A DNA stretch of 43,991 nucleotides, from sequence record KP869107, one strand, 5' to 3'. Numbering within the stretch: position 1 is the stretch's first letter; the number at the start of each line of letters is the position of its first letter. A program made the position numbers and the translations under genes. The stretch is from Escherichia coli O157 typing phage 9. The notes below the pieces were generated by a model that saw only the letters and a program-made list of their open reading frames with translations, made no database searches and was not told where the DNA came from. Shown in pieces: positions 1-33,862 of the stretch.

Positions 1-270
1 ACAAATTTGCCTAATTGCCCTGGCCCACCAAGAGGAACAAAGTTATTCATCACGGCGTTGTTTGCGCCGGGGTCATGATGCACAGAATCCCCGTTTTTTG
101 TCCTGCTCTCCCTCTCTTGGTTAAATGACTGGTTATATGACTGGTTCTGGATCCCGTTTTTGGGATCATTCAACATCCCGTTTTTGGGATCATTCAACAT
201 CCCGTTTTTGGGTATATTCCCGTTTTCGGTAACATTACCGTTTTCGGGTTCATTGACCCCCTCTCGGTTG
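1..270. repeat. Direct repeat, copy 1 (matches 39093-39374 except one 12-bp unit)
   Basis: Read directly: acaaatttgcctaattgccctggcc... recurs at 39093; copy 1 has 2 units of atgactggtt(a/c)t, copy 2 has 3. Confidence 0.95.
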
Positions 271-479
271 CCTTTAATGTTCCCGTTTTTGGTTATATTA
301 AGAGAGAAAACCCGCACTCTTTTTGTCGCTCCCTTTCTCTCTCCGGTATCTGAAATAAGCCCCATTTTCATGAGCGATATAAGCCCGGCCTGCACGGTTT
401 TTTTATTCAGGCAAGTGTCTTTAACGAGGCGTTCTATGCTGGGGTAGCAGAGGTTATATTCATCGGCTCTGTCAGCCAT
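1..479 (-). CDS. Replication initiator, lambda O-like (N-terminal HTH domain plus iteron-encoded linker); C-terminus lies beyond the window start
   Basis: Minus-strand translation from ATG at 479: MADRADEYNLCYPSIERLVKDTCLNKKTVQAGLISLMKMGLI... (replication-initiator HTH signature), continuing through the iterons as NG-rich repeats; sits upstream of the P-like gene in the circular map. Confidence 0.6.
   Translation of the reverse strand, partial: MADRADEYNLCYPSIERLVKDTCLNKKTVQAGLISLMKMGLISDTGERKGATKRVRVFSLNITKNGNIKGNREGVNEPENGNVTENGNIPKNGMLNDPKNGMLNDPKNGIQNQSYNQSFNQERESRTKNGDSVHHDPGANNAVMNNFVPLGGPGQLGKF
151..300. repeat. Origin-like iteron array (about 6 copies of a CCCGTTTT(T)GG core, two perfect 24-bp units) inside the O-like gene
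   Basis: atcccgtttttgggatcattcaac at 151-174 and 175-198, degenerate copies to about 300; same arrangement as the lambda ori within gene O. Confidence 0.6.
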
Positions 480-569
480 CGAGAGCAGTATGAGCTTTAA
501 TGATGAGCTGCCTGGATCTGTCTCCCAAGCCCAATCTGTTGCATGTCTGCTCATGATTAATCTCCGCTA

Positions 570-770
570 TCAGCTTGAGTGTTGTGGGGAGGAATTAATC
601 ATGATCTGCTTAATCTCTGCCCTGATGCGACGGTTTGATTCCATGGTGCACTCAACACAGTGTCCGTTGTAAACCCAGCGTTCACTGTCATGTCCGTGCT
701 TACATTGTTTTCCGGTGTAATAGCGTTTAAGTCCGCGCTTTGCGGCATCAATACGTGTAATGATTTCCAT
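570..770 (-). CDS. Hypothetical small Cys/His-rich protein in the cII-equivalent position
   Basis: ORF with C-x-H-G-H...H-C-x-x-C cluster; track start at 833 is TTG, first ATG at 770; lies between Cro-like gene and O-like gene. Confidence 0.35.
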   Translation of the reverse strand: MEIITRIDAAKRGLKRYYTGKQCKHGHDSERWVYNGHCVECTMESNRRIRAEIKQIMINSSPQHSS

Positions 771-875
771 GGTAAGCCCTGTTATTAGTATTGGGATTAC
801 GGTTATTTTGTGCTGACACAAAAAAAAGATCAACCATATTTGGTTTTTTATTACCTTTGAGGTACGAATAGATAT

Positions 876-899
876 GAAAAGACCGCCGGATGGCGGTCT
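876..899 (-). terminator. Rho-independent terminator after the Cro-like gene
   Basis: Hairpin agaccgcc-ggat-ggcggtct followed by T-tract on the minus strand. Confidence 0.5.
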
Positions 900-920
900 A
901 CAGAGGGTTGTGGCTGGATA

Positions 921-1151
921 TCATGAGTAGAAGAAGTATGCCAGTTCTGCTTTTGAGCGCAGCCATTGTCTTGTTTTACAGGCTTTAAAAAGCCCATTCA
1001 TCAATACCTTACCTGGCATTTTGCGCTTACCTGTTAAGTGAGTCTGGATATAGTGACTCGTCGTTCCGGCTTCCTGTGCGAAGGCTTCACGCTCATCCGG
1101 AGTAAGTGCAAGCCAGTGCTTTTTGAAATCGAAATGTCCGTTATCGCTCAT
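921..1151 (-). CDS. Cro/CII-like HTH regulator, divergent from the repressor gene
   Basis: 76 aa, ATG at 1151; HTH-like segment LTPDEREAFAQEAGTTSHYIQTHLTGKR; divergent from the repressor-like gene across a 154-bp operator region. Confidence 0.5.
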   Translation of the reverse strand: MSDNGHFDFKKHWLALTPDEREAFAQEAGTTSHYIQTHLTGKRKMPGKVLMNGLFKACKTRQWLRSKAELAYFFYS

Positions 1152-1187
1152 AGCTATTGCCTGATATTTATTTCAGATAATAAATAT

Positions 1188-1250
1188 TCACCCATAAGGT
1201 AACAAAAATCAAGGATAGTTACCTATGGGGTGCATTTACCTGTTGGGTAA
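1188..1250. promoter_or_regulatory. Operator cluster: three TTACC-N5-GGTAA-type sites between the divergent repressor and Cro-like genes
   Basis: Sites at 1188-1202 (TCACCcataaGGTAA), 1219-1233 (TTACCtatggGGTGC), 1236-1250 (TTACCtgttgGGTAA). Confidence 0.5.
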
Positions 1251-1305
1251 TATTGCTTTAAATTGAATCATCTACTGATTCATATATGAGGCGATTTTCC
1301 AGAAA

Positions 1306-1890
1306 ATGAAAAGTATCCAGGACGTCCGCAGGCAAAATCTCAACGACTTGATCGACCGTGAATTCAATGGTGTTCAGACGCGGATGGCAGAAAAACTTGG
1401 AACTCAGGCAAATCTGGTAAACCGCTGGGCTCTTGGCAAGAAGGTTATCGGCGACCAGGTTGCGCGAAAAATTGAAGCTGCCGCCAATAAACCCCGTAAC
1501 TGGCTTGATATCGATCGCTCGCTTTCTCAGGAAGGTTTTCAGCCTGTCGGACCAAGCGACATTGGTCAACTGGCGGCTCACAACCTGGAACGCTGGATGA
1601 GCGAAAGCCGCGACCTTTCAACGCAGGGAAAACTTCACCGCGCATCCGGCGTCGCCCAGGTAACAATCAGCCGCCTGTTAAACAATGAGGTCAGCGTTTC
1701 CATTTCCACCCTGGAGAATGTTGCATCCGCATTTGGGCGTCACGGATATGAATTACTGATTCACCCGCACGACCCCGCGACTATCAACTATGACCGCTCG
1801 CGCTACGCATTGTTACCTGAAACAGAGAAGGCAAAGATCGAAAGTTACATTGAATTTGTCATCAACCAGAACGAAAAAAACAAACAATAA
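1306..1890 (+). CDS. Phage repressor-like protein with two HTH domains and no peptidase S24 (autocleavage) domain
   Basis: 194 aa, ATG at 1306; two HTH-like segments (MAEKLGTQANLVNRW... and ASGVAQVTISRLLN...); no Ala-Gly/Ser-Lys cleavage module recognisable. Confidence 0.55.
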   Translation: MKSIQDVRRQNLNDLIDREFNGVQTRMAEKLGTQANLVNRWALGKKVIGDQVARKIEAAANKPRNWLDIDRSLSQEGFQPVGPSDIGQLAAHNLERWMSESRDLSTQGKLHRASGVAQVTISRLLNNEVSVSISTLENVASAFGRHGYELLIHPHDPATINYDRSRYALLPETEKAKIESYIEFVINQNEKNKQ

Positions 1891-1910
1891 AATCATATTT
1901 TTCAGTAAGT

Positions 1911-1935
1911 AAGCCGCCTTATGGCGGCTTTTTTA
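1911..1935 (+). terminator. Rho-independent terminator after the repressor gene
   Basis: aagccgcc-ttat-ggcggctt followed by ttttt. Confidence 0.55.
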
Positions 1936-1947
1936 TTGCCTATTCGA

Positions 1948-2024
1948 TTACCTAACGGGTAATTTTTTTAACTCATATCTATTGACATCAAACCAGATAC
2001 GCATAATTATTACCTCAACGGTAA
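1948..2024 (+). promoter_or_regulatory. Promoter/operator region of the recombination operon (TTGACA flanked by two perfect TTACC-N5-GGTAA sites)
   Basis: Sites at 1948-1962 and 2010-2024; TTGACA at 1983-1988; located just upstream of the 2044 and 2199 genes. Confidence 0.45.
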
Positions 2025-2043
2025 CAGACCGAGGTAACAAGTT

Positions 2044-2196
2044 ATGCAGTGGAAAATCATCAACGGTTGGTACTGCGTTACTGCATGCGGATTCATGAGC
2101 TGGAAGTTCCGCACCTTACAGGAAGGCATTAAGTGGGCTTTCGTCAGCAAAGAAGCTCGCGATGTAGCCAACGATAACGAGATATGGGAGGGCTGA
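2044..2196 (+). CDS. Hypothetical small protein (50 aa)
   Basis: ATG at 2044 preceded by gaggtaacaag; below the track's 60-aa cutoff, found by manual translation: MQWKIINGWYCVTACGFMSWKF... Confidence 0.3.
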   Translation: MQWKIINGWYCVTACGFMSWKFRTLQEGIKWAFVSKEARDVANDNEIWEG

Positions 2197-2198
2197 TA

Positions 2199-2498
2199 AT
2201 GAACGTTAATCAGCAGAAAAATCTTCAAAAAATCATGCTGGCATTCGACAAGGACTACCGCCTGTCAGAACAGCTATATGACCGACAAGTTGAACTGATT
2301 GAGAGCATCCGACTTCATCAACTGTCCTCAACTTTTGACGTTGTAACAGGCAAAGGCGTTCGTCAGGAAGTACTGGAGGCTGCTAAAGACAGCCCTGAGT
2401 TCGAAGAACTGATGGATGCCTATCGGCGAGAGGCAATGGCAATTATCGCCCGCTGGGATCTGGCGGATCAGCTTGATGGACAGAGGGACGCGGCATGA
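2199..2498 (+). CDS. Hypothetical protein (99 aa), translationally coupled to the downstream recombinase
   Basis: ATG at 2199 with GGGAGG RBS; stop overlaps the ATG of the next gene (ATGA). Confidence 0.45.
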   Translation: MNVNQQKNLQKIMLAFDKDYRLSEQLYDRQVELIESIRLHQLSSTFDVVTGKGVRQEVLEAAKDSPEFEELMDAYRREAMAIIARWDLADQLDGQRDAA

Positions 2499-4255
2499 AA
2501 CCGGGAATTTATTTCGACATCAGCAACGAAGACTACCACGCCGGTGACGGCGTGAGTAAGTCGCAACTGGACATGGTTGCCAAGAATCCGTCGCTTCTTA
2601 AATGGGTCCAGGCAGCACCAGAAGACGAAGAGAAAAAGTCTGCACTGGATATTGGAACCGCATTGCACTGTCTGCTTCTGGAGCCTGGAGAATTCGACAA
2701 ACGCTTCATTGTTTCACCGAAGTTCGATCGTCGGACGAAACAAGGTAAAGCTGACGAAGAAGCATTTCTTCGTGATGTAGCGGATATGGGGATTACGGTA
2801 CTTGATGCCGAGCAGTGGCGGAAACTGGAGCTGATGCGTGATAGCGCAATGGCTCACCCGGCGGCACGCTGGATGCTGGAAGCACCTGGTTTCTGCGAAG
2901 CATCAATGTACTGGAATGATGAAGATACTGGTGAGTTGTGCCGCATTCGTCCAGACAAATGGCTGAACGAGCACAACGTGATCGTCGACGTGAAAAAGGT
3001 TGCAGATATGGACCGTTTTGCACGCCACATCGAGGAATTCCGCTACCACGTGCAGGACGCAATGTACCGCGAAGGCGCAATGAGGGTTACTGGTCAGCCG
3101 CATGGTTTTTTCTTTCTTGCCGTGAGCGAAAGCATTGATTGTGGTCGGTATCCGGTACGCGTGTTCGAGCTGGATGCGCCGGATGTCGATGCCGGGCACG
3201 CTCTGTTCCGCCGGGATCTGAATACCTATCACGAATGCCGCATAAATGATGAATGGGGCGGTGTGGAAATCATTAAACGCCCTGAGTGGGCACGCAAAAC
3301 AGGATATGTACATATGAGCAACGACATCGCAAACATCAACGCACCAGTAGACACAGCAATCGCTGGAACTGCTGCAACTATTTTCAGCCCAGACGGCTTG
3401 AACCAACTGATGAAATTCGCCGAGGTAATGGCGCAAAGCCGCGTAACGGTACCGGCGCACCTCGCCGGGAAACCAGCTGATTGCATGGCCGTGGCAATGC
3501 AGGCTGCGCAGTGGGGAATGAACCCGTTTGCCGTGGCTCAGAAAACCCATGTTGTGAACGGCACGCTAGGTTATGAAGCCCAATTAGTAAACGCAGTTAT
3601 CTCAACGATGTCGCCAACAAAAGATCGCATCAACTACGAGTGGTTCGGGCCGTGGGAACGCGTGATCGGTAAGTTTGTTGAGAAAACATCCAAAAACGGC
3701 AATCCATATATCGCACCAGGCTGGACTCTAAAAGACGAAGAAGGCTGCGGTGTTCGCGTATGGGCAACCATGAAGGGCGAGGATCAACCTCGAGTGCTTG
3801 AGTTAATGCTGTCTCAAGCACAGGTAAGAAACTCCACACTTTGGGCCAGTGATCCGAAACAACAACTCGCATACCTTGCGACAAAACGCTGGTCTCGCTT
3901 GCACTGTCCTGACGTAATCATGGGCGTCTACACACCAGACGAATTACAGGAAACGGCACCGCGCGTTGAGCGAGACATTACTCCGCAAACGACCACTGCT
4001 GCGGGAATGAACAGTCTGATCAACGCTAAACCAGTGAAAAAGCCTGATGAGCAAACTCGTAAAGCGGATAGCCGTGATCCAGAAGAAATGCTGATGGCCT
4101 TTACCAGCGCAGCGATGAATTACAGCACTGTCTCCGAACTGGATAAGGCTTACAAATACATTGCACAAAAACTTTCAGATGATGACGAACTGCTGGCAAA
4201 AGCCACCGACGTTTACAGCGTTCGTCGGGAAGAATTAAACGAAACATCTATGTAA
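2495..4255 (+). CDS. Recombination protein: N-terminal PD-(D/E)XK exonuclease domain fused to a C-terminal RecT/Bet-family annealase domain
   Basis: 586 aa; N-term DIGTALHCLLLEPGEFDKRFIVSPKFDRRTKQGK (PD-(D/E)XK / exonuclease VIII-like signature); C-term MAVAMQAAQWGMNPFAVAQKTHVVNGTLGYEAQ (RecT/Bet-like); single uninterrupted ORF. Confidence 0.65.
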   Translation: MKPGIYFDISNEDYHAGDGVSKSQLDMVAKNPSLLKWVQAAPEDEEKKSALDIGTALHCLLLEPGEFDKRFIVSPKFDRRTKQGKADEEAFLRDVADMGITVLDAEQWRKLELMRDSAMAHPAARWMLEAPGFCEASMYWNDEDTGELCRIRPDKWLNEHNVIVDVKKVADMDRFARHIEEFRYHVQDAMYREGAMRVTGQPHGFFFLAVSESIDCGRYPVRVFELDAPDVDAGHALFRRDLNTYHECRINDEWGGVEIIKRPEWARKTGYVHMSNDIANINAPVDTAIAGTAATIFSPDGLNQLMKFAEVMAQSRVTVPAHLAGKPADCMAVAMQAAQWGMNPFAVAQKTHVVNGTLGYEAQLVNAVISTMSPTKDRINYEWFGPWERVIGKFVEKTSKNGNPYIAPGWTLKDEEGCGVRVWATMKGEDQPRVLELMLSQAQVRNSTLWASDPKQQLAYLATKRWSRLHCPDVIMGVYTPDELQETAPRVERDITPQTTTAAGMNSLINAKPVKKPDEQTRKADSRDPEEMLMAFTSAAMNYSTVSELDKAYKYIAQKLSDDDELLAKATDVYSVRREELNETSM

Positions 4256-4304
4256 CCACCACCGCGGCGCCACACGCGCCGCACTGCAACCAAGAGAGGT
4301 ATTT

Positions 4305-4553
4305 ATGAAAGGTGCATTAGGTAAGAAGGAACTCCTGGCGGTGGTGCCACTGTCATGGAGCACTATCGACCGTATGGAGCGCGCAGGGGAATTTCCTAAA
4401 CGCTGGTATATCACTGACAAACGCTGCGCATGGAACCGTGACGAAGTTGAGCGTTGGCTTGATGAACGTCAGGCAGCAAGCCCGGCAGAGTTCCAGGGTA
4501 AAAAACCTCCTGTTCAGCAACGTGTATATCGTCCCGTGAGCAACGCTGCATGA
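4305..4553 (+). CDS. AlpA/excisionase-like DNA-binding protein
   Basis: 82 aa, AGAGAGG RBS; MerR-like HTH pattern LLAVVPLSWSTIDRMERAGEFPKRWYI typical of AlpA/Xis. Confidence 0.6.
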   Translation: MKGALGKKELLAVVPLSWSTIDRMERAGEFPKRWYITDKRCAWNRDEVERWLDERQAASPAEFQGKKPPVQQRVYRPVSNAA

Positions 4554-4662
4554 GTGCGCTGCTAAGGCACTGGAGCAAATGGTCAGGATGGTACTTATTC
4601 CTGGCCTCTGTTTCAGCATGGCTTTATCTGCTGGCATTAATTTTCAGAGAGGGTTGGATTAA

Positions 4663-4962
4663 GTGAGAAAGTTAAGCCGACTTGAAAAATATCACATGAA
4701 TAAGGTTTCAATGCGCAGTCCGTCAAAGATTGTCGCCGTTACTCCTGCGGCGATAGAGATCGAAAAACGCGCGATTGAAAGAGAGAAAAAAGGGCAGTTC
4801 CGCATTGCCGCTCACCTTTGGCTTCAGTGTATGGATGTTGCTTCTGGTGATGTTGAACGTGCAAGGATCGCGGTTCGCAGGGACCAATGTATCACAAAAG
4901 GTAACGGCCTTCGCCGTGGCGACTATAGCGGCATAGGATGTTGTGGGGTGGTTTATGACTAA
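4663..4962 (+). CDS. Hypothetical protein (possible small regulator)
   Basis: ORF from the track; track start is GTG, alternative ATG at 4711 has an AAGG RBS; no family recognised with confidence. Confidence 0.35.
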   Translation: MRKLSRLEKYHMNKVSMRSPSKIVAVTPAAIEIEKRAIEREKKGQFRIAAHLWLQCMDVASGDVERARIAVRRDQCITKGNGLRRGDYSGIGCCGVVYD

Positions 4963-5605
4963 GAAATACACACTAATCTATGCAGATCCACCCTGGGTAT
5001 ACCGGGACAAAGCCGCAGATGGTAATCGCGGTGCCGGTTTTAAATATCCGGTTATGAGTGTGCTGGATATCTGCCGCCTTCCTGCGTGGGATTTGGCCGA
5101 TGAAAACTGTCTGTTGGCCATGTGGTGGGTGCCAACACAACCACTCGAAGCACTAAAAGTTGTTGAAGCCTGGGGATTTCGTCTGATGACGATGAAGGGC
5201 TTCACGTGGATAAAATGTGGTAGTCGACAACCAGATAAACTGGTTATGGGTATGGGGCACATGACTCGCGCCAATAGTGAAGATTGCCTGTTTGCGGTAA
5301 AGGGAAAACTACCTACGCGCATTAATGCAGGGATCGTTCAGTCATTTACCGCACCGCGGCTTGAGCATTCAAGAAAACCAGATGTCGTTCGTGAAAAACT
5401 TGTGCAATTGTTAGGCGATGTTTCTCGCATTGAACTGTTCGCCCGCCAGTCGTCTCATGGCTTCGATGTTTGGGGTAATCAGTGCGAAGACCCGGCAGTG
5501 CAACTACACCCTGGATACGCGTTGGATATTGGCGGATTAACAAATGCATTCAGCAATGCTCCGCTGTCACCAACAGACAACCAGGGGCAGGAGCGTGCAG
5601 CATGA
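4955..5605 (+). CDS. DNA N6-adenine methyltransferase (DPPW motif; MT-A70/phage Dam-like)
   Basis: YTLIYADPPWVYRD catalytic motif; start taken at ATG 4955 (track start 4943). Confidence 0.7.
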   Translation: MTKKYTLIYADPPWVYRDKAADGNRGAGFKYPVMSVLDICRLPAWDLADENCLLAMWWVPTQPLEALKVVEAWGFRLMTMKGFTWIKCGSRQPDKLVMGMGHMTRANSEDCLFAVKGKLPTRINAGIVQSFTAPRLEHSRKPDVVREKLVQLLGDVSRIELFARQSSHGFDVWGNQCEDPAVQLHPGYALDIGGLTNAFSNAPLSPTDNQGQERAA

Positions 5606-5796
5606 ACAGGGCATCACCAGCAGATTTAAGGAAATGCCTTGAAACTGCAAACATGCTTGCACACAGCGGGATAAGGTTTGTTCCAATTCCCGCTGTCACT
5701 GATGCTGAATTTGCAACACTGTCAGCAATATTCGCAGATAAAATTGAATCACTGGCAGCAGAAGCCGAGATGGAAGAAAATCAGCAGAATAATTAA
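5602..5796 (+). CDS. Hypothetical small protein (64 aa), start overlapping the methylase stop
   Basis: ATG at 5602 within gcagcATGAac (ATGA overlap); convergent with integrase. Confidence 0.35.
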   Translation: MNRASPADLRKCLETANMLAHSGIRFVPIPAVTDAEFATLSAIFADKIESLAAEAEMEENQQNN

Positions 5797-5799
5797 ACG

Positions 5800-7050
5800 T
5801 TATTCCCCCGCCATCCACTTCTCAAACTTCGACGGGGAGAACGGAATCAGATCCGTATGCTCCCCGTTAATCCAGGAATCAATCATATCGGACCACTGCT
5901 GCAACATGTAGGCGCGCTGTCTGGCGTATTCCGCTTTGTTATATACGGCGCGCACACCTTTCTGCTCATGTGCCAGAGCCTTTTCAATCCAGTCTGAAGG
6001 ATAACCAGCCTCATGCAACAACGTACTGGCTGTACGGCGCATATCGTGTACGGTGAAGCCCTGAATATGCTCACCATCTTCATTTATTATTTTCACCGTT
6101 CTGTCGATCAGAGAGTTCAGCGCGGCATTAGATAATGGCTTCCGGAAATTGTAACGACCAGGAACCAGATATTCACTTCCACCAGCGCACATCTGCAACC
6201 CGACCAATATATCCTGAGCCTGTTTAGGCAGGTAAATAACGTGCGCCCGGCTTCCCTTCATGCGGTCTGAAGGAATTGTCCATGTCCATTTTTTAAAATC
6301 TATTTCATCCCACGTTGCGTTGGTGAATTCGCCTTTACGAACCATAGTGATAAGCACCAGCTTTAAAGCCATTTTCATAGTGCCCATAGCACCAATGGCA
6401 TCCAGCGTGCGGAAGAACAGGCCAATTTCTTCTGGTGTCAGTGTTCGCTCTCGTGGTTTAAATATGGCGATAGACGAAGGTTTAATGTCAGCCGCAGGAT
6501 TAAACAAACCATGACCACGGTCATTGGCGTGACGGTATACGCTGCTGATGATCTCCCTGGCCTGCACTGCTGTTGCCCGACCACCGCGTTCGACAATCCT
6601 GTCACACAAATCACGAACCATCGATGTGGTAATTTCAGCCATCATTTTGTTGCCAAGAACCGGAAGTATGTCACGGTCGATCACTGCCTGCTTCATTGCG
6701 CGGGTACTTTCAGCCAGGATGACGTGTTTCATATAACTGTCGGTATGTACCGCAAACGTCTCGGCACCACGAATCTTTTTGATACCGTCACGTTTAGCCG
6801 CAGCCGGTGACTGGCCTGCTTTAAGCAGCTTCTTTGCAGCAATCAGTTCTTCTCGCGCTTCTGCCAGGCTGATACCGTCACGCCCATACTGCCCGATTAC
6901 CAGTGTTTCGCGGCGACCGTTGATACGGTAGTCATAGCGAAACGAGACCGTACCTGACGTAAGCACAGCTACATACAGCCCGTCACGATCGGAAACTTTG
7001 TACAGTTTGTCCTGTGGCTTGAGGTTTTTTAATTTTGTATCGGTAAGCAC
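5800..7050 (-). CDS. int: Tyrosine-type site-specific integrase (P4-like family)
   Basis: 416 aa; N-term LTDTKLKNLKP; C-terminal catalytic region HDMRRTASTLLHEAGY...AHEQKGVRAVYNKAEY; GTG start. Confidence 0.85.
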   Translation of the reverse strand: MLTDTKLKNLKPQDKLYKVSDRDGLYVAVLTSGTVSFRYDYRINGRRETLVIGQYGRDGISLAEAREELIAAKKLLKAGQSPAAAKRDGIKKIRGAETFAVHTDSYMKHVILAESTRAMKQAVIDRDILPVLGNKMMAEITTSMVRDLCDRIVERGGRATAVQAREIISSVYRHANDRGHGLFNPAADIKPSSIAIFKPRERTLTPEEIGLFFRTLDAIGAMGTMKMALKLVLITMVRKGEFTNATWDEIDFKKWTWTIPSDRMKGSRAHVIYLPKQAQDILVGLQMCAGGSEYLVPGRYNFRKPLSNAALNSLIDRTVKIINEDGEHIQGFTVHDMRRTASTLLHEAGYPSDWIEKALAHEQKGVRAVYNKAEYARQRAYMLQQWSDMIDSWINGEHTDLIPFSPSKFEKWMAGE

Positions 7051-7092
7051 AATTCACCCGTATAAAAACCATTTTCATGACGGTATGAGAGT

Positions 7093-7339
7093 ATACCTTT
7101 AAGGTAATACCGTCACCTGTACCGCCGAAAAATATGGTGTAGAGTGAATAGAAATGAATACATAAAAACAAAAACCCTCTGTAAAAACAGAGGGTTAAAT
7201 TAGTATCTGAATAGGAATGAGTTGCTATGAGTTAGCTGTTAATCATTCCCACTCAATTATTTACGGCAACCATAACCAATTGAGTGATAACATTTTTCCA
7301 AAACTTCATTTTTTTAGTACCGTTTTATATACCGTCACC
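7093..7339. promoter_or_regulatory. Candidate attP / integrase control region
   Basis: Noncoding stretch upstream of int with direct repeats taccgtcacc (7108-7117 and 7330-7339), 9-bp inverted repeat cactcaatt/aattgagtg (7250-7286), and a TTACC-type site at 7093-7107. Confidence 0.3.
7165..7196 (-). terminator. Rho-independent terminator after the lysis cassette
   Basis: Hairpin aaccctctg-taaaaa-cagagggtt with T-rich tract on the minus strand. Confidence 0.5.
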
Positions 7340-7367
7340 GGAAATCAGTACCATGAAAAATGCCATG

Positions 7368-7850
7368 CTATCTTGTCAGGGTGTCATACTGTTTTTCGCA
7401 GACTCTTCCGGCTTCGGCTGCCCGGTCAGCATACTCTGCCAGTTGTCTGTTTCTCTCGAGAGATTTGCTGAGCACGTCGGCAAGCAAAACTCCGGTGTCT
7501 GCGGCTGACGTCCCAGCGCCGACAATGGCGTTATACTGCCTGAGCTGCTCACGGATGGCAACGAGCTGTTTCTGCAACCGGCCAGCGCGAGCGGCAGCAT
7601 CAAGAGCATCATTGCGCGCCTGGTCGATCCTCTGCTGCGCTTCACGTTCATTGATCGCTTTCTCCTGTTCGTAGTGCTGACGAACTTTCTCATCTTCGGC
7701 TTTGCGCTCTTCCTTCGCCTGCACATACCCGGCGTCGTACTGACGGCTACCGTGCACATTCCAAGCAACAATTCCGGATATGACCAGAACAGCAAGCATC
7801 ACCACGATAATTAACTGTTTCCAGTATGCTTTTGCGAATGCCCAGATCAT
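7368..7850 (-). CDS. Rz: Rz-like i-spanin
   Basis: 160 aa; N-terminal TM helix then coiled-coil; start overlaps the endolysin stop (ATGA). Confidence 0.6.
   Translation of the reverse strand: MIWAFAKAYWKQLIIVVMLAVLVISGIVAWNVHGSRQYDAGYVQAKEERKAEDEKVRQHYEQEKAINEREAQQRIDQARNDALDAAARAGRLQKQLVAIREQLRQYNAIVGAGTSAADTGVLLADVLSKSLERNRQLAEYADRAAEAGRVCEKQYDTLTR
7376..7612 (-). CDS. Rz1: Rz1-like o-spanin lipoprotein, embedded in Rz in a different frame
   Basis: MMLLMLPLALAGC lipobox followed by a Pro/Ser-rich sequence, entirely within the Rz gene. Confidence 0.55.
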   Translation of the reverse strand: MMLLMLPLALAGCRNSSLPSVSSSGSITPLSALGRQPQTPEFCLPTCSANLSRETDNWQSMLTGQPKPEESAKNSMTP

Positions 7851-8476
7851 ACCGCCAGCACCTTACTGGCAGTGATGTACCGCGCGCGCCGGTCGTCGAT
7901 GCCGTTCCGGCCACCATTGATAATCAGAGTTACACGTGCAATATCGCCGGTATACTTCATGCATCCTTTGCTGGCAAAGAACCACGCTGCGCTACGAGCC
8001 GCATATTCGTCATGCGCCAGCAATTCAGGGCTCTCCAGCAGGTCAACCTTCAGACCGTTTCCGCAATCACGATAGTTATTCAAACCGGTAATCTGGATAA
8101 GCCCGCGCCCACGGTAATTCCAGCCATCGCCGGGAGCATTGTTACCCATGCGTTTGCTGTACACCAGATTGGCGATCGCTCTCTGGCGCTCGAGTGGCAA
8201 TGGAGGTTCGCCTGCGCGGCGACCCAATGCGTTGGCCTGTCCCTGAGCGAGACGCCCAGCCCGAACGAAGTTAGCCAGTCCGGTGACACTGTAGTTGAAA
8301 TTCTCCTGCAACCGGATGAAACCACCAGACTCATGCCCGACCTGAGCAATAAACATTGCCTGATCTTCAGCTTTGCTGATACCAAACTCTTTCATCGCAG
8401 AAGTTATATGCGAGAACCAGCGTGCGGCCAGCGCCTCGCTAATACCAGCAGCTCGCTGGAATTGTTTAATCTCCAT
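7847..8476 (-). CDS. Endolysin, glycoside hydrolase family 19-like
   Basis: 209 aa; MFIAQVGHESGGF...NYRGRGLIQITGLNNY signature of GH19 lysozymes. Confidence 0.75.
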   Translation of the reverse strand: MEIKQFQRAAGISEALAARWFSHITSAMKEFGISKAEDQAMFIAQVGHESGGFIRLQENFNYSVTGLANFVRAGRLAQGQANALGRRAGEPPLPLERQRAIANLVYSKRMGNNAPGDGWNYRGRGLIQITGLNNYRDCGNGLKVDLLESPELLAHDEYAARSAAWFFASKGCMKYTGDIARVTLIINGGRNGIDDRRARYITASKVLAV

Positions 8477-8774
8477 GTTGAGACCTCGTTATTTTGAAAA
8501 TCTGCACGACGTTACCGCGGGTTTTCAGAACGGCGGCAAGCATGACAGCGTTGATGACAACCTCCGAAAGATCGTCGGTCATTGGCGTGTGGTACCAGAA
8601 AGCGTACGCGGCACGTACCGGGATGCTGGCAGCGGCCACAATGAGGAAGTAAGCGATCCACCCTCCCCATCTGCGATGTTGTGAACCGTTACGCCGGAAC
8701 GTACCGACGCGGATCGCTATACATGAACAGATAACCGCATTAGCAATAAGCAAAAGCAGCTCATGAGTTGTCAT
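8466..8774 (-). CDS. Small membrane protein of the lysis cassette (holin or antiholin candidate)
   Basis: 102 aa with hydrophobic segments; directly upstream of and overlapping the endolysin start. Confidence 0.4.
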   Translation of the reverse strand: MTTHELLLLIANAVICSCIAIRVGTFRRNGSQHRRWGGWIAYFLIVAAASIPVRAAYAFWYHTPMTDDLSEVVINAVMLAAVLKTRGNVVQIFKITRSQHGD

Positions 8775-9165
8775 CGTCTTTTCTCCCCGGAATTAACTCG
8801 CGTGGATTGTCAGAACGGTGATAGAGCCAGATGCCAATGCGCACTGCGACTATTGCTGACACGAATGCGCCAGCAGAGAAGACGATCCCTTTCTCGAAAG
8901 AGTCCTGAGTGATGGTAGGGATCAGGCTGGCAAAGCCGATAAGGATCGACGCTGTGGGTTTGTAGAAGAGAAGGCCGCAGAGGAAGCTGAGCAACGACAG
9001 GAGCACGCGGCGACGGATTGGATACTCAACTGCCGAGGTAACAAAGATTACCGCACCAGCCAGAGCACCAAGCGCAACTTCTGGCGGAACACCTGCAATT
9101 ACTGCAGCAAGAGACCCCATGCTAAGCCACTGATTTAATGACTCACTGGTTAGCCCTGCTGACAT
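8761..9165 (-). CDS. Holin-like membrane protein
   Basis: Multiple TM segments; ATG at 9165 with GGTGG RBS (track start 9174 is GTG); first gene of the lysis cassette. Confidence 0.45.
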   Translation of the reverse strand: MSAGLTSESLNQWLSMGSLAAVIAGVPPEVALGALAGAVIFVTSAVEYPIRRRVLLSLLSFLCGLLFYKPTASILIGFASLIPTITQDSFEKGIVFSAGAFVSAIVAVRIGIWLYHRSDNPRELIPGRKDDDNS

Positions 9166-9324
9166 AATTACCACCGTTTACTGTGCATAAAGAACCCCCT
9201 TAGTTGGTGAGTCCATTATACACAATAAACCATATATGGTTAAAATAACTTAGAATTGATCCTATCGAAATTACCCGATAGGTGATATTATTTATTGAAA
9301 TAATACAGCTTAACGTACCTGGTC

Positions 9325-10341
9325 ATGAAAGATAAGAATTTGAATATTGAGTTGATTAGAGTGGCTGCTTGCTTTTTGGTGGTTGTTCTTCATTCTGTAA
9401 TTATAGGTATGAATGAAACAGGCTCATCAGGATGGGATATATTAAATATAATAGAATCTTTTACCAGAATATCTGTACCGTTATTCATTATGATTTCTGG
9501 GGCTTTGCTTATTAAAGAAAGTACAAATATGAATTCGTCATTAAAACGAGCAAATCGGCTATTCATTATTCTACTTTTCTGGTCGGCGATATATTACTTA
9601 TATCGTTCACATGTAAATAGTTTCCCCATAGATGTGAAATCATTTTTTAATTTATTTTTTCGATCGCAGATATTCTATCATATGTGGTACTTATATGCAG
9701 CCATTGGATTCGTTATCATTATGCCATTACTTAGTAAATTCTATTTACACTCAAATAAAATAGATGTTGTAATTTTAGTATGGTTATGGATGCTTCTTTT
9801 ATTCTTTAGTTTATTAAATGTATATCTTGGATTGAATTTAAATATCAACAATCTATTTCAAGTTAGTATATTTTCCAGCCTTGCTGTGTACTTGCTTCTA
9901 GGGAAGATAATTTTAGATAATCAAGTTAACATGACAAACTCAACAAAAATAATGTTAACCATTATGCTGACTGCATGTACGTTTGCGACCGCTTTTATAA
10001 CAAAGAATATTTCTGTTTACAGGGGACCGGTAAACCAGATGTTTTATGATAACTCGTCTTTGTTTATTGCCATGTCTGCAATATGTTTTATGGTGTTCAT
10101 GATAAACACCCCTGTTAAAAACAAAACGATATTACACATAGTGAAATTTATTTCTCCCTGCACACTAGGGATTTATCTTGTCCATCCATTAATCATTGAC
10201 ATACTCAGGAGATTTTTGCTTGATAAATATTCGATCCATCCAGAGATGTTTATCGTTATTCCTCTTTCTTTTATCGTGTTCTTAATTTCATTAGCCATCG
10301 TAGTTTTTTTAAGAAAATTTGGGTTGTCACGTGTAATATGA
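9325..10341 (+). CDS. Acyltransferase-3 family membrane protein (putative O-antigen acetyltransferase, lysogenic conversion)
   Basis: 338 aa polytopic membrane protein; markedly AT-rich compared with flanking phage DNA; sits next to the tailspike as in serotype-converting phages. Confidence 0.7.
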   Translation: MKDKNLNIELIRVAACFLVVVLHSVIIGMNETGSSGWDILNIIESFTRISVPLFIMISGALLIKESTNMNSSLKRANRLFIILLFWSAIYYLYRSHVNSFPIDVKSFFNLFFRSQIFYHMWYLYAAIGFVIIMPLLSKFYLHSNKIDVVILVWLWMLLLFFSLLNVYLGLNLNINNLFQVSIFSSLAVYLLLGKIILDNQVNMTNSTKIMLTIMLTACTFATAFITKNISVYRGPVNQMFYDNSSLFIAMSAICFMVFMINTPVKNKTILHIVKFISPCTLGIYLVHPLIIDILRRFLLDKYSIHPEMFIVIPLSFIVFLISLAIVVFLRKFGLSRVI

Positions 10342-10353
10342 CAACCAACTATA

Positions 10354-12981
10354 TTAAATATTTCCGTTCAGCGTGCGGAATGAGTATTGTTTATCCAGGT
10401 CTACTGGGGTAAATAATCCGTACATTCTGCTCGCTGCGTAGTCTGACTCAGATGAGAAACCGCCAACATAAACATGCGAACCTGCCCCTTCACATGCAAT
10501 ATCACCTGCTAATGGTCCTGAAAATGCGGTGATAGAAGATGTTCCGCTGTTGAATATGCTATTAAATGCGGCGTGAAGATCTGGTTGTCTGTACGCCCGT
10601 CGTATACGCCTTCCGGTATTTATATCAATAATAGACCACCATAATCGGCCTGGAGCGAATCCCATCGCAAAATGATATACGCCTCCTGAAGCTAACGCTT
10701 GCTCCGTTGTCAGATCGCTTGTTAACGTTTGAGTTATACCATCACCGGATAATAATATTGCTATAGTCTGCACACCACTGGAGTTAACTATAAATTGCAT
10801 AACAGCAGAGTTTCCAGAGGGCGAATATCCACTCCCCAGAGTGAAAGCTGTCATAGTTGTTGCACCCGTAAATGACGGGATTAGAACAAGGCCGATTGTA
10901 CACCCATGTCTCGATACTTTATCAGAAAATAATAACTTATCCTTGTTTGATTGCGTTAACTTAAGCATGTTTCCTTGCCCTAGTATCGAAGGAGCGCTTA
11001 CATATGTTGCGGTTGTAACGACTCCGTCAAATGTAGGAATATTGTTTTTTACGCTTCCTGTATATGTATAATAGTTTTTTAGGCCATTTATTATTAAATC
11101 ACCAGAATATGGCTGAATAAGATTATTGTCACCCATGAGTCGTTCGCTGTTTACTTCTGACTCGTAAATACCATTTATCAATACGGTACTATCGGAACCA
11201 ATACACCTCACATTTCCGGCTTGTGAATTTAGATCATATAGCGATGTAGCAGCATAGTTACGGCAAACATAACCATCTACAGTTACTATACTGTTTTCAA
11301 AAACCATATTATGGTATGACAGATTTGATGATGCACTATTTCTGTTAGTATTCAACCCACTGATAGCAACAGTTGAATTTTTAATATACAATCCATCGTA
11401 TGCACAGTCCTGTAACTCAACTCCTGTCATGTTTACATTTTGTGAATTAGAAATACGTAATCCTGAATATGGTGTTTCATTTTCTGAACCAGCCCAAATT
11501 AATTTGGCACCTATAATTCTGCAATTACCAGCACCATCAAGCACTAAGCATTCCTGCCCACACGTATCAATTTGAAGGTTTGTCCATGTAAAATCGGTAG
11601 TTCCGATCTTAGCCCCGGTTTTTTTAATGTTTCTTATGAATAATCCATGCGTTGAGACGGAAAAATTCGTTTCAGGATAATCAAATCCTAACTCGTCAAA
11701 TCCTGTAATGTGAACATTGCTAATGTAAAGATCCCTACGAACGTCAGGGGCGGTATTGAATGGATAGCTTGGTGCCCCACCTGGGTTTCCTGTCTCCATC
11801 GTTACCCCGCTTGTTCCCGCAGTTATTCCATCCCCATACAGGCCACAATCGGACAAATAAATCAGGCTGCAATCCTGAGTAATTGTCAGTAACGCGCCTG
11901 TTGCCCCAGATATTTGCTCTATCCTGGAAACGTGTAGACCAGACCCAGATAGTGAACACGACTTGTTATTTAGCTCAAGATTAGATGCTTTCCAGACATT
12001 TGTGCCAAGCTCAGCCGCCCTGCCACATTCAAGCATCTTTTGCAGTGCTGCTGTATCATCAGCCACGCCAGTGGCCCCAAACATAAACGGATTAACCTTA
12101 TCTGCATTAACCCGTAACCATACAGAACCACCTGCTGTTTTTATTACAACACCATCATCATCGGTATAGCCAGTTCCATCAAGTACAGCTCTGAATACCC
12201 CTCCACCAAGCCCAGTTCCGATCGTATGCTGTCGCAACGTGATCCTTTGACCATTTTTTTCAGGTTCTATTGTTCTTAGTGTCAATATATCAGGGCACTG
12301 ACCAATAAACTTAAATCCATCATTTGCCGCTAACTGGATCATTACATCAGTAGCCGAACCAGATTCAGGCAAAACCATTATCGGATTTCCAGTATCATCC
12401 ATTGCAACAATCTTATTCTTACGTTGCTCAATTCCCGGCAATGCTGGTATCGGCTCAGGGGTTCGTAGCGTTCTGCTCAGGTTTGTTTCTGCGACCCCAT
12501 CAACATATTTTTTTGTAGCCGCATCCTGCGGTCTTACAGGGTCACGAAGGTTACGAATATAGTTGTCCATTGCGTCGTAATAGTTAGCAACAAATGACGG
12601 CTTACGTAGCGCCAGACTAAACCAACTACGAACCTGCTGAATCAACATTGTCAGCTTATCAAACGCATCCTCATGCACCTCAGCAAAGAACTTCCCCTGG
12701 TTACGGAGATCTGTTTCCTGCGTAACCGACAGTTCACGTGATATGGAAATCTGGTAACCATTAGCCAGAGCTGTTGCAAGTATTACATTACCACCTTCAT
12801 ATCCCCCTGCGCCGGTTACTGTGTAGTCAGTATCCAGCGTCAGAACAGTGATGTTATCGTTCAGGTCAACAACCTGTACTACCAGATCAGATTCCTTGAA
12901 AACCCTAAAGGTATACGGAAATGATGTCGTAACACCGTTACCGGTGTATTCGTTGTGGTTAACTTCGGTTGAGACCGTCAT
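10354..12981 (-). CDS. Tailspike/tail fibre protein (T7 gp17-like N-terminal anchor plus beta-helix-like C-terminal domain)
   Basis: 875 aa; N-term EYTGNGVTTSFPYTFRVF...LDTDYTV anchor domain; long Gly/Asn/Ser-rich C-terminal region. Confidence 0.8.
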   Translation of the reverse strand: MTVSTEVNHNEYTGNGVTTSFPYTFRVFKESDLVVQVVDLNDNITVLTLDTDYTVTGAGGYEGGNVILATALANGYQISISRELSVTQETDLRNQGKFFAEVHEDAFDKLTMLIQQVRSWFSLALRKPSFVANYYDAMDNYIRNLRDPVRPQDAATKKYVDGVAETNLSRTLRTPEPIPALPGIEQRKNKIVAMDDTGNPIMVLPESGSATDVMIQLAANDGFKFIGQCPDILTLRTIEPEKNGQRITLRQHTIGTGLGGGVFRAVLDGTGYTDDDGVVIKTAGGSVWLRVNADKVNPFMFGATGVADDTAALQKMLECGRAAELGTNVWKASNLELNNKSCSLSGSGLHVSRIEQISGATGALLTITQDCSLIYLSDCGLYGDGITAGTSGVTMETGNPGGAPSYPFNTAPDVRRDLYISNVHITGFDELGFDYPETNFSVSTHGLFIRNIKKTGAKIGTTDFTWTNLQIDTCGQECLVLDGAGNCRIIGAKLIWAGSENETPYSGLRISNSQNVNMTGVELQDCAYDGLYIKNSTVAISGLNTNRNSASSNLSYHNMVFENSIVTVDGYVCRNYAATSLYDLNSQAGNVRCIGSDSTVLINGIYESEVNSERLMGDNNLIQPYSGDLIINGLKNYYTYTGSVKNNIPTFDGVVTTATYVSAPSILGQGNMLKLTQSNKDKLLFSDKVSRHGCTIGLVLIPSFTGATTMTAFTLGSGYSPSGNSAVMQFIVNSSGVQTIAILLSGDGITQTLTSDLTTEQALASGGVYHFAMGFAPGRLWWSIIDINTGRRIRRAYRQPDLHAAFNSIFNSGTSSITAFSGPLAGDIACEGAGSHVYVGGFSSESDYAASRMYGLFTPVDLDKQYSFRTLNGNI

Positions 12982-13137
12982 GTTAAATCTCCAGATAGTC
13001 GCAGCACCCGTTGCGCCGCATATCCGGTTATTCTATTACCTGAAAAACCACATATGGATAGATAACACATAAATACGAACAGATATTACCTTTCAGGTGA
13101 TTCGCAAAACGTGCTGGATAGCAAACAAATTATTTGC

Positions 13138-13157
13138 TACTGTGTATTTATACAGTT
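13138..13157. promoter_or_regulatory. LexA (SOS) box
   Basis: tACTGTgtatttatACAGtt, 17/20 match to taCTGTatatatatACAGta; about 20 bp upstream of the ATG at 13177. Confidence 0.6.
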
Positions 13158-13176
13158 ATTGCATGGAGAAGATAAG

Positions 13177-13434
13177 ATGCCGCAGTATCACTATCCACTG
13201 GAAGACGGATTTACCGAAAGGATTCACACGCCGGGAGGCGTCAGGTCACTGGTGGAGGGATCGCACTTGATGAAATTACTCCGGGATCTCGATAAGGATG
13301 GATTTAATGTCGATGGCCCACTTGCCGAACTGACTGCACTGATTAACTACGTCACCAGCTCACAGATGTCCATGCGGGATCTGCAAACACATCTCGACTA
13401 TTGTGCCGAACAATTACGAAAACAAACCAGATAA
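13177..13434 (+). CDS. Hypothetical small protein downstream of the LexA box (candidate SOS-induced factor)
   Basis: 85 aa from ATG 13177 with GGAGAAG RBS (track ORF 13111-13434 starts earlier). Confidence 0.45.
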   Translation: MPQYHYPLEDGFTERIHTPGGVRSLVEGSHLMKLLRDLDKDGFNVDGPLAELTALINYVTSSQMSMRDLQTHLDYCAEQLRKQTR

Positions 13435-13452
13435 GGTTTGCAATTACCAAGT

Positions 13453-13493
13453 GGAGTGCTTATATTTACCGCAAAGGTAAATATAAGCACTCC
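13453..13493. promoter_or_regulatory. 41-bp perfect palindrome (18-bp arms, 5-nt centre) containing TTACCgcaaaGGTAA
   Basis: ggagtgcttatatttacc-gcaaa-ggtaaatataagcactcc read directly. Confidence 0.6.
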
Positions 13494-13569
13494 TATTGTG
13501 CCATAGTAATCGGGCACTGGCAAAATCCAGTGCCGGGATTGGCGTCCCGGGTTACTAAAAGGCGCATTC

Positions 13570-13590
13570 ACCGCGCAAGCGGTTTTTTTA
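13570..13590 (+). terminator. Rho-independent terminator between the small ORF and the antirepressor gene
   Basis: accgc-gcaa-gcggt followed by ttttttt. Confidence 0.5.
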
Positions 13591-13746
13591 TGCGTATAGC
13601 ACGGTCACATTCGTATTATGGTGGGCTGTGTGGGGGCACCGAAAGGTGCGCCGGGTCCTTTTAGCCGGTTACGCCAACCCTGCACAGTTCACCACCAACC
13701 GATTGGCGTAGGTAGTGGTGATTAACCAGACTAAAAGGTAACCACT

Positions 13747-14331
13747 ATGACAGCTACAAAAAGCACGTCCATTTTTTCTTTCGAATCCCAAGCCGATATA
13801 CGGGTAATCGTCATTAATGGTGAGCCATGGTTTATCGCTTCAGATGTTTGTCGGGCTATAGGCATAGCAAACCATCGAGATGCTGTTCGAAAACTTGATG
13901 ATGATGAGAAGGGTGTCGCTTCAACCGACACCCCTGGCGGTGAGCAAGAATCGATCATCATCTCCGAGTCAGGACTCTACACACTGATCCTCCGCTGCCG
14001 CGATGCGGTGACACCAGGCACTATCCCCTACCGCTTTCGTAAATGGGTTACAGGTGAGGTTCTTCCTCAGATCCGCCGCACCGGAAGTTACATTAAAAAC
14101 TCGCTCCCGCAGGAAGAACGCATAAAGATGGTTGCCGACCAGGTAGCCAACGCCACGGCGTCAGCAGTAATGCAGGCGATGAAGATAGAGAACAAAACCT
14201 ACAGTGCCCCACTGAAGCCCGGCTACCGTAGCCTGATTCATTCGCCGTCTGGTGTTCTCGGCCTGACGGAGCACTCACTGCTGATGAACAGGACGACGGG
14301 CATGATGTATCAGGCGCGGCGGCGGAGCTGA
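13747..14331 (+). CDS. Bro-N domain protein / putative antirepressor
   Basis: 194 aa; N-term FESQADIRVIVINGEPWFIASDVCRAIGIANHRDAVRKL typical of Bro-N/antirepressor proteins. Confidence 0.65.
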   Translation: MTATKSTSIFSFESQADIRVIVINGEPWFIASDVCRAIGIANHRDAVRKLDDDEKGVASTDTPGGEQESIIISESGLYTLILRCRDAVTPGTIPYRFRKWVTGEVLPQIRRTGSYIKNSLPQEERIKMVADQVANATASAVMQAMKIENKTYSAPLKPGYRSLIHSPSGVLGLTEHSLLMNRTTGMMYQARRRS

Positions 14332-14445
14332 CCACCATGTTCTGCTACATCGTCGGTGTGAGCAAATGCCTGCGTGATATCCAGACGCACGCGGAGTACA
14401 TCAACGACAAGGCAGGGTTCTTCTGACGGGCGGAGGCGGCATTCG

Positions 14446-14472
14446 TTAAAAACAAGGCCGCGAAAGCGGCCT
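14446..14472 (-). terminator. Rho-independent terminator at the 3' end of the minus-strand virion operon
   Basis: aggccgc-gaaa-gcggcct with T-tract on the minus strand. Confidence 0.45.
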
Positions 14473-14491
14473 GTGACATGTCACGCTCACG

Positions 14492-14632
14492 TTATGACAA
14501 GCCTATGTACCCTGCTACACCAGATAATATCAAAATAACTGCAACAGCAAATTCGCCATAGTCAATGATACATTTACGGTTCATAACGCCAAGTGCAACA
14601 AGCGCAAACACAACAAGAATAAAAGCAATCAT
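14492..14632 (-). CDS. Hypothetical small hydrophobic protein (46 aa)
   Basis: Manual translation MIAFILVVFALVALGVMNRKCIIDYGEFAVAVILILSGVAGYIGLS; not in the track (under 60 aa). Confidence 0.3.
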   Translation of the reverse strand: MIAFILVVFALVALGVMNRKCIIDYGEFAVAVILILSGVAGYIGLS

Positions 14633-14641
14633 TTCTCATCC

Positions 14642-33858: not shown

Positions 33859-33862
33859 AACC

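Follow-up and report, generated by a model that had tools for sequence, protein, structure and literature searches.

Several temperate phages link prophage induction to the SOS (DNA-damage) response of their host by means of an antirepressor. Following self-cleavage of LexA, the antirepressor inhibits the phage repressor by protein–protein interaction, as outlined in a passage of a review that cites Kim and Ryu 2013 (J Virol 87:11775) (PMC7380047). The closest described example is Salmonella phage SPC32H; according to the passage on this phage in PMC9638917, which cites Kim et al. 2016 (PNAS 113:E2480), its repressor (Rep) is a tetramer on palindromic DNA sites, and a tetrameric antirepressor (Ant) binds two Rep dimers, which breaks the Rep tetramer. 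This article examines the corresponding genes, rep and ant, in the sequence record of Escherichia coli O157 typing phage 9 (KP869107; the whole stretch of 43,991 bases that was analysed is referred to as the window), together with a nearby gene for a Bro-N protein and the RNA elements preceding it.

Bases 1–16000 of the window, the range covered by the identity comparison, are 99.9% identical to Escherichia phage phiV10 (NC_007804) and 100% identical to E. coli O157 typing phage 10. The phage is phiV10/typing phage 10, of the genus Uetakevirus of epsilon15-like temperate podophages, and is called phiV10 below. Its core circuit is already known, being the phiV10 copy of the published SPC32H system. 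A first-pass annotation, made from the letters alone, had taken the circuit to be undescribed for this phage type; it has in fact been described for SPC32H, a member of the same genus. With considerable confidence, phiV10 can be said to use a LexA–Ant–Rep switch of the SPC32H type, with the Bro-N gene as a separate, broken second antirepressor under RNA control. The elements of the switch are the following.

921–1151, minus strand: Cro-like small regulator (PhiV10p41), divergent from rep; match to phrog_35 'transcriptional repressor', E 5.6e-13.
1306–1890, plus strand: rep (PhiV10p40), two helix-turn-helix (HTH)-type domains, S24 peptidase absent; orthologous to SPC32H Rep (PDB 5D50_A, Pfam).
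13138–13157, plus strand: LexA (SOS) box TACTGTGTATTTATACAGTT, from a consensus scan; position conserved in relatives.
13177–13434, plus strand: ant (annotated as hypothetical protein PhiV10p24), 85 amino acids; match to PDB 5D50_E, and synteny.

The rep product has 194 residues, in which Pfam profiles recognise two HTH_3 stretches (the best at residues 106–147) and a weak YdaS-type HTH at residues 21–61. The first-pass annotation had placed a repressor with two HTH domains but no S24 autocleavage module at 1306–1890, and both points hold: no Pfam match to Peptidase_S24 was obtained even at E ≤ 1, and the translation contains no Ala-Gly or Cys-Gly dipeptide. Residues 1–190 align with chain A of PDB entry 5D50, 'Repressor' (E 4e-42), and the C-terminal half aligns with 5D4Z. 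These structures (5D50 chains A and E, and 5D4Z) are those of Rep and Ant of SPC32H. Identity to SPC32H Rep is 42% over the full length, and since the alignment spans residues 1–190, there is no room for a further domain. Judged by its sequence, the phiV10 protein is a Rep homologue without an S24 domain, as belongs to an SPC32H-type system, where an N-terminal HTH domain binds DNA and a C-terminal HTH-like domain serves oligomerisation and Ant binding; PhiV10p40 can be re-annotated as Rep.

The 85-residue product of ant matches chain E of 5D50, 'Anti-repressor protein' (E 2.9e-46), and is 88% identical to SPC32H Ant (72/82 identical). Domain databases say little about it; at E ≤ 1, Pfam gives a sub-threshold match to DUF724 only, and PHROGs assigns it to phrog_450, of unknown function. 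Since this protein is orthologous to the crystallised Ant, it is, by homology, the antirepressor of the switch, and the Bro-N protein is not. The start codon at ATG 13177 is preferred because a Shine–Dalgarno sequence is present (GGAGA, 8 nt 5′ of the ATG) and because the protein then aligns with the start of the crystallised Ant. An alternative GTG start at 13111, giving an open reading frame (ORF) of 107 codons, was rejected, as that frame would contain the LexA box.

The box itself, TACTGTGTATTTATACAGTT, agrees with the LexA consensus at 17 of 20 positions and has the CTG-N10-CAG core intact. It is the sole match with three or fewer mismatches in the 43,991 bases, and none of 100 shuffled sequences gave any; the looser pattern CTGT-N8-ACAG has three copies in the window, with an AT-rich centre only at 13138–13157. 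The near-consensus box of the first-pass annotation was thus recovered by the scan and is unique in the window, and the small ORF that it had placed about 20 bp further on does begin there, the ATG lying 19 bp past the box. For comparison, 120 IMG/VR loci were gathered by means of an exact 29-mer from the intact Bro-N fusion described below; these are close relatives and not independent samples. Small ant and sufficient flanking sequence are present in 88 of the 120, to which all counts out of 88 refer. CTG-N10-CAG occurs within 100 nt 5′ of ant in 88/88, with diverging flanks, and the box of a Klebsiella phage departs from this by ATG for CTG in one half-site. Predicted from sequence, then, phiV10 has both a small (~86 residues in such systems) Ant homologue and a LexA box immediately 5′ of its gene.

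SPC32H and phiV10 share their genus, Rep, Ant, the position of the LexA box and gene order. The GenBank record of SPC32H names rep and ant in the same order as in phiV10, with rep divergent from a cro-like gene. In both phages, ant lies between the tailspike and virion-protein genes and is divergent from the tailspike gene. The region upstream of ant can be aligned between them, with the LexA box in the same position and differing at two inner positions. Two further differences stand out: Rep is far more diverged than Ant, and SPC32H lacks a cassette of ~1 kb, with IsrK, C4 and Bro-N, that phiV10 carries between ant and the terminator. SPC32N is a sibling of SPC32H, reportedly two nucleotides away from it and constitutively lytic because Ant is made constitutively. 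Within the ~150 nt that can be aligned 5′ of ant, the one difference between SPC32N and SPC32H is a C→A change in the CAG half of the box.

In a phiV10 lysogen, Rep would hold the lytic promoters off, probably as a tetramer on TTACC-N5-GGTAA palindromes, and host LexA on 13138–13157 would silence ant. DNA damage would activate RecA, leading to LexA self-cleavage and the production of Ant. Binding of Ant to uncleaved Rep would then take the Rep tetramer apart and off the DNA, so that lytic growth could follow. The Bro-N gene would be the output of an inserted cassette resembling the immI region of phage P1, a LexA-independent input in relatives that is broken in phiV10. The circuit offers an explanation for the DNA-damage response of phiV10-type prophages; according to a 2026 preprint, a microcin that damages DNA induced prophages of the Uetakevirus phiV10 species 21- and 47-fold (bioRxiv 10.64898/2026.05.26.727859). 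For PhiV10p24, a 'hypothetical protein' in RefSeq, the name antirepressor Ant can be adopted. An obligately lytic derivative should result from a C→A change at 13153 (as in SPC32N) or from a deletion of rep, and this is of practical value as phiV10 serves as a typing and reporter phage for O157:H7. Beyond re-annotation, little is at stake in this core finding.

This switch is extended in phiV10 by ~1 kb (13436 to ~14447), which, relative to SPC32H, is inserted exactly behind the ant stop codon and ahead of the terminator. The insert and its downstream boundary comprise the following features.

13438–13480, plus strand: predicted sigma-70 promoter TTGCAA-17-TATATT, with a perfect palindrome TTACCGCAAAGGTAA (13466–13480) over −10/+1, from a promoter scan.
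13514–13589, plus strand: IsrK-like small RNA containing b1 (13537–13545), a1 (13554–13562) and its own terminator (13570–13589); Rfam RF01394, 75.9 bits, cut-off 50.
13614–13699, plus strand: C4-type antisense RNA with loops a′ CCTTTTAG (13657–13664) and b′ TACGCCAA (13670–13677); Rfam RF01695, 77.7 bits, cut-off 45.
13701–13738, plus strand: C4 target sites b2 (13701–13709) and a2 (13730–13738), from exact repeats and complements.
13747–14331, plus strand: Bro-N gene, with Bro-N at residues 17–107 and the start of an Ant-like domain at ~148–178; Pfam PF02498, phrog_450 and alignments.
14337–14426, plus strand: ORF of 29 amino acids (PhiV10p22), out-of-frame remnant of the Ant-like C-terminal part; phrog_450 positions 58–84, phrog_15539.
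14455–14472, no strand assigned: GC-rich hairpin terminator, common to a convergent membrane-protein gene and, in SPC32H, placed immediately after ant.

Both Rfam RNAs fall within the 312 bp that separate ant from the Bro-N gene. The C4 model RF01695 is matched over its full length (1–87), and a third model, RF03163 (c4-a1b1, 'a1, b1 targets of C4'), gives 44.1 bits at 13501–13553, which is slightly under its cut-off of 46.7. The palindrome TTACCGCAAAGGTAA forms the centre of an inverted repeat at 13448–13498 with 23-nt arms, and the arrangement of promoter and palindrome is kept in four diverged phages (including ZX5, Tyrion and the Klebsiella phage), among which N5 varies. It lies within 120 nt of the ant stop codon in only 51 of 88 relatives. 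In phage TL-2011b, ant and the IsrK/C4 cassette are separated by a further ~1.1 kb (L004:367–1455), with an opposite-strand gene 'similar to hypothetical protein'; extra sequence of this type may be the reason for the lower count.

The loops of the C4-type RNA are exactly complementary, over 8–9 nt, to sites on either side. Loop a′, CCTTTTAG, pairs with ACTAAAAGG at 13554–13562 (inside IsrK) and again at 13730–13738, and loop b′, TACGCCAA, with GATTGGCGT at 13537–13545 and 13701–13709. The a2 copy of ACTAAAAGG covers the AAAGG Shine–Dalgarno sequence of the Bro-N start codon, ATG 13747. In Tyrion, C4 reads AGACCAA and both targets TTGGTCT; its second pair consists of CCTTTGTAG in C4 with CTACAAAGG downstream and CTACAGAGG upstream (a G·U wobble). 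For the Klebsiella phage, the C4 sequence is CCGTTTAG and the targets read CTAAACGG and CTAAGCGG. As a pattern read from sequence comparison, these compensatory changes across three lineages give good support to a functional antisense interaction whose specificities would differ between phages. Whole-C4 duplex energies were dropped as a measure and replaced by exact loop complementarity and covariation, because the duplexes (−37 to −45 kcal/mol) are no more stable than those with random phage segments (mean −32, sd 7, minimum −60).

In the ZX5 annotation, a coding sequence for an 'ash family protein' (L003:1397–1510, corresponding to window 13628–13741) overlies the C4 RNA, and a stop codon interrupts the phiV10 copy. 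This coding sequence is probably an annotation artefact that arises from translating a conserved RNA gene. As a candidate analogue of icd or orf45, genes of the P1 and Gifsy-1 loci discussed below, it was set aside on account of the stop codon in phiV10.

The first-pass annotation was right about a Bro-N gene at 13747–14331: PF02498 is found with E 1.6e-21 and 77.1 bits (cut-off 25.6). Residues 148–181 of the product match phrog_450, the Ant family, in its N-terminal part. The gene has 229–234 codons in ZX5, TL-2011b, Tyrion and the Klebsiella phage, where it encodes Bro-N, a linker and a complete Ant-like domain, and the ZX5 protein (231 amino acids) matches 5D50_E over residues 150–226 (E 1e-13). 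Relative to ZX5 and TL-2011b, phiV10 lacks 16 bp (ATCTGCTGAACCAGTT) after 14287/14288, which causes a frameshift and ends the protein at 194 residues. Its first ~178 residues are 100% identical to those of ZX5; of the C-terminal Ant-like domain (~80 residues when complete, in a phrog_1760-type fusion), ~30 residues remain in frame.

Only records of phiV10 and typing phage 10 were found to have this deletion. In IMG/VR, the deleted junction occurs in phiV10 itself only, as against at least 120 viral contigs with the intact junction, and none of 5,426 complete E. coli genomes has the shortened allele. Prophages of the O157:H7 strains TT12A and TT12B, otherwise identical, carry the extra 16 bp. 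Among species-representative genomes, the 19-mer of the deleted junction has eight matches, all in unrelated, non-enterobacterial genomes and consistent with chance. As the 16-bp deletion truncates the Ant-like domain, the second input is probably dead, and judging from its sequence the phiV10 allele is probably inactive as a Rep antagonist. The frameshift allele provides an isogenic contrast with ZX5 and TT12A/B.

What the intact gene may do is suggested by ZX5, whose repressor is reported to be identical to phiV10 ORF40 (PMC9782041). Its ORF4, called an 'anti-repressor', is the intact allele of the phiV10 Bro-N gene and identical up to the deletion point; it differs in its 231 residues and complete Ant-like domain, as opposed to a product that stops at residue 194. 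Overexpression of intact ORF4 reduced lysogens from 1e9 to 1e6, and the ZX5 paper mentions neither LexA nor SPC32H (PMC9782041). The intact fusion is plausibly a second antagonist of the same Rep. In some IMG/VR relatives (L011, L012, L024, L031 and others) and in the E. coli genome matches H80, H82 and H85, the Ant-like domain is joined instead to a domain annotated as ORF6N or AntA/AntB family, and these fusions sit behind the same IsrK/C4 cassette. Several contigs hold two copies in opposite orientation. The variety suggests domain shuffling around a constant Rep-binding module.

The elements of the circuit could also be read in other ways, and the two readings that concern the switch itself can be dealt with briefly. 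That Rep is a classical repressor undergoing RecA-stimulated self-cleavage is extremely improbable, given the absence of S24 matches at E ≤ 1 and of Ala-Gly and Cys-Gly sites in a protein whose length is filled by the two-domain fold of SPC32H Rep; nothing was found in favour of this reading. Little more can be said for the view that the LexA box is non-functional, by chance or as a relic, and that induction takes another route: its three mismatches to the 20-bp consensus would fit, but the box is unique in 44 kb with no counterpart in 100 shuffles, its CTG-N10-CAG core recurs in all 88 relatives, and a single box change separates SPC32N from SPC32H in the aligned region. This view is very unlikely. 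The first-pass annotation had seen an SOS–antirepressor circuit in which LexA controls the small ORF and a Bro-N antirepressor follows; the LexA and small-ORF logic stands through orthology to SPC32H, and the assignment of the antirepressor role to the Bro-N protein does not. Nor is the Bro-N gene visibly under the LexA box, having its own predicted promoter and IsrK/C4 control within the inserted cassette. A single LexA-controlled unit, with the Bro-N protein as an antirepressor in the SOS response, is therefore improbable. It would draw on the finding that no canonical terminator separates the ant stop codon from the cassette (a hairpin at 13453–13493 is without a U-tract), on the partial read-through of the IsrK terminator by Gifsy-1 transcripts (PMC4825925) and on the effect of overexpressing the intact ZX5 homologue (PMC9782041). 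Against it, SPC32H has ant and no Bro-N gene, the orthologue of the crystallised Ant is the 85-residue protein, the Bro-N gene has a conserved promoter-like element and RNA control over its ribosome-binding site, and the Ant-like domain of phiV10 ends after roughly 30 of 80 residues.

A less drastic alternative, compatible with the preferred explanation, is that the truncated Bro-N protein is functional, by way of its Bro-N domain or of what is left of the Ant-like domain, for instance in anti-immunity against resident prophages; this is doubtful, though it deserves more credit than the readings above. The Bro-N domain and linker are intact and fully ZX5-identical over ~178 residues, the RNA elements are intact, and the original GenBank record labels the product a 'putative anti-immunity protein'. 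However, most of the homology to crystallised Ant has been lost, and the restriction of the deleted allele to the typing phage, with none in the at least 120 viral contigs or the 5,426 E. coli genomes, suggests a recent lesion and not a selected form. The SPC32H-type switch with a broken second antirepressor has its own weak points. LexA binding, the Rep–Ant interaction and the RNA mechanism in phiV10 are carried over by analogy from SPC32H, Gifsy-1 and P1. The Ant-binding surface on Rep is likewise assumed to be conserved, in a protein only 42% identical to SPC32H Rep. A consensus scan at ≥9/12 gave no promoter upstream of ant, so the presumed overlap between LexA box and promoter rests on the SPC32H analogy. 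The truncated Bro-N protein could keep some activity. Finally, no terminator belonging to ant precedes the cassette; transcripts begun at the LexA-controlled promoter may therefore run on into the IsrK region, and transcription from ant through IsrK, C4 and Bro-N could bring some SOS coupling of the Bro-N gene. More speculatively, such read-through would raise the level of IsrK-like sequences carrying decoy C4 targets, thus linking both inputs.

The palindrome over the cassette promoter is one of many. The 15-bp motif TTACC-N5-GGTAA has 8 perfect and 6 one-mismatch sites in the window, 14 in all, as compared with means of 0.03 perfect and 0.72 one-mismatch palindromes in Markov-generated sequences of the same composition. 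The sites and clusters found by the motif scan, none with an assigned strand, are listed below.

851–865, 1188–1250, 1948–1962, 2010–2024, 7093–7107 and 9271–9285: palindrome sites, first half of the set.
13086–13100, 13466–13480, 30711–30725, 33858–33890, 37935–37949 and 37997–38011: palindrome sites, second half of the set.
1188–1202, 1219–1233 and 1236–1250: three TTACC-N5-GGTRA palindromes in the intergenic region of rep and the cro-like gene, putative Rep operators.
13086–13100: TTACC-N5-GGTGA palindrome in the divergent intergenic region between tailspike gene and ant, ~40 bp upstream of the LexA box.

The copy at 1219–1233 has two mismatches and falls outside the count of 14. The corresponding interval of SPC32H holds these three sites as well, equally spaced at 30/17 bp (L001 113–127, 143–157 and 160–174), and the palindrome at 13086–13100 is kept in SPC32H, ZX5, Tyrion, the Klebsiella phage and 88/88 IMG/VR relatives. 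The sites checked against the ORF map are intergenic, with 33858–33890 at the edge of a listed ORF. Phage-wide, most palindromes lie at intergenic or operon boundaries, and SPC32H has equivalents. The Rep proteins of phiV10 and SPC32H share the putative recognition helix NLVNRW, and the half-sites are conserved; Rep is the likely binder. As a set, the palindromes look like dispersed operators comparable to those of P1 C1. Together with the RNA-controlled second antirepressor and the frameshift allele, this candidate genome-wide Rep operator could, if confirmed, matter more than the core finding.

Taken together, these features allow a wider proposal for the clade of phiV10, ZX5, TL-2011b and Tyrion, put forward tentatively and with somewhat less than an even chance of being right. 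The Rep-binding Ant domain would be used twice, as a LexA-gated free protein and as a Bro-N fusion gated by a portable P1-type IsrK/C4 cassette, giving a two-input switch; the promoter of this cassette has the palindrome that also marks the putative rep operators. Covariation of a/a′ and b/b′ would set immunity specificity, Rep would act through ~14 operators in the manner of P1 C1, and phiV10 would have lost the second input by a natural mutation. If true, an SOS input and an RNA-based immunity or superinfection input converge on one Rep; the second antirepressor would then be a module under RNA control that reuses the Rep-binding domain of Ant. Three points may be undescribed: the link of the SPC32H-type Ant domain with a C4/IsrK cassette, the 16-bp deletion specific to phiV10, and the dispersal of the palindrome. 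In a literature comparison that covered sources other than the primary SPC32H papers, no paper connecting Ant domain, cassette and palindrome was found.

Some observations concern the remainder of the window, which joins more than one molecule: a phage contig ending near 39373, a run of Ns and a segment of another prophage. The ends of the phage contig overlap, so that it closes on itself: bases 1 to ~230 recur at 39093 to ~39373 (an overlap of ~280 bp), with a small indel near base 150. The Ns start from ~39374, and ~39475–43991 belongs to the other prophage, with portal and terminase genes; it is 100% identical to E. coli chromosomes and is split by IS66/ISEc8 in some genomes. At 9325–10341 lies the O-acetyltransferase gene oac, whose G+C content of 34% against ~50% elsewhere is typical of an acquired moron, and whose role in phiV10 is serotype conversion and superinfection immunity. 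A tRNA gene is located within the phage at 31048–31121 (Rfam RF00005, 73.3 bits), near the palindrome at 30711–30725. Positions 2495–4255 form a single ORF of 586 amino acids that fuses RecE-like exonuclease and RecT-like annealing domains; in SPC32H, in contrast, the RecE-like and RecT-like genes are separate, with an HNH endonuclease gene between them.

Among other known systems, coliphage 186 with its Tum protein and the Gifsy/Fels-2 prophages follow the same logic, in that a non-cleavable repressor is paired with a LexA-controlled small antirepressor acting by protein–protein contact (PMC7380047). The proteins differ: Ant has no detectable sequence relationship to these antirepressors, and Pfam (E ≤ 1) and PHROGs gave no Tum/DinI homology for it. 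The authors of the SPC32H work are said to have described Ant as structurally distinct from them.

For the Bro-N cassette, one point of comparison is the isrK–orf45–anrP locus of Gifsy-1, where an IsrK-family RNA, with a terminator, precedes an antirepressor-like gene (PMC4825925). In phiV10, likewise, the RF01394 RNA has an intrinsic terminator and lies 5′ of an antirepressor-like gene. In Gifsy-1, the antirepressor-like gene is transcribed, and translated only when short IsrK acts in trans, and the output of the locus induces the AntQ antiterminator (PMC4825925). A C4-type RNA is unmentioned in the abstract and locus section of that paper (Hershko-Shalev et al. 2016; PMC4825925).

The immI region of P1 and P7 provides the other part of the layout. 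Shared with the phiV10 cassette are an operator at the promoter, upstream targets, a C4 RNA, downstream targets over a ribosome-binding site and an antirepressor; the annotated P1 record gives the order as the C1 operator Oc4, the promoters (P1c4/P2c4), a1 b1, c4, a2 b2, icd and ant1/2. In phiV10, correspondingly, a C4-family RNA is flanked by targets both upstream and downstream, with the downstream set at the ribosome-binding site. Covariation that changes specificity is known for P1 versus P7. The two loci differ in that no icd homologue was identified in phiV10, the order of a and b is inverted, and the operator motif and the repressor are different. The intact Bro-N fusion was considered as a homologue of P1 Ant1 and rejected (BLASTP E 0.11). 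Since P1 Ant1 and the Bro-N fusion are non-homologous, it is the RNA cassette that is the shared, portable part.

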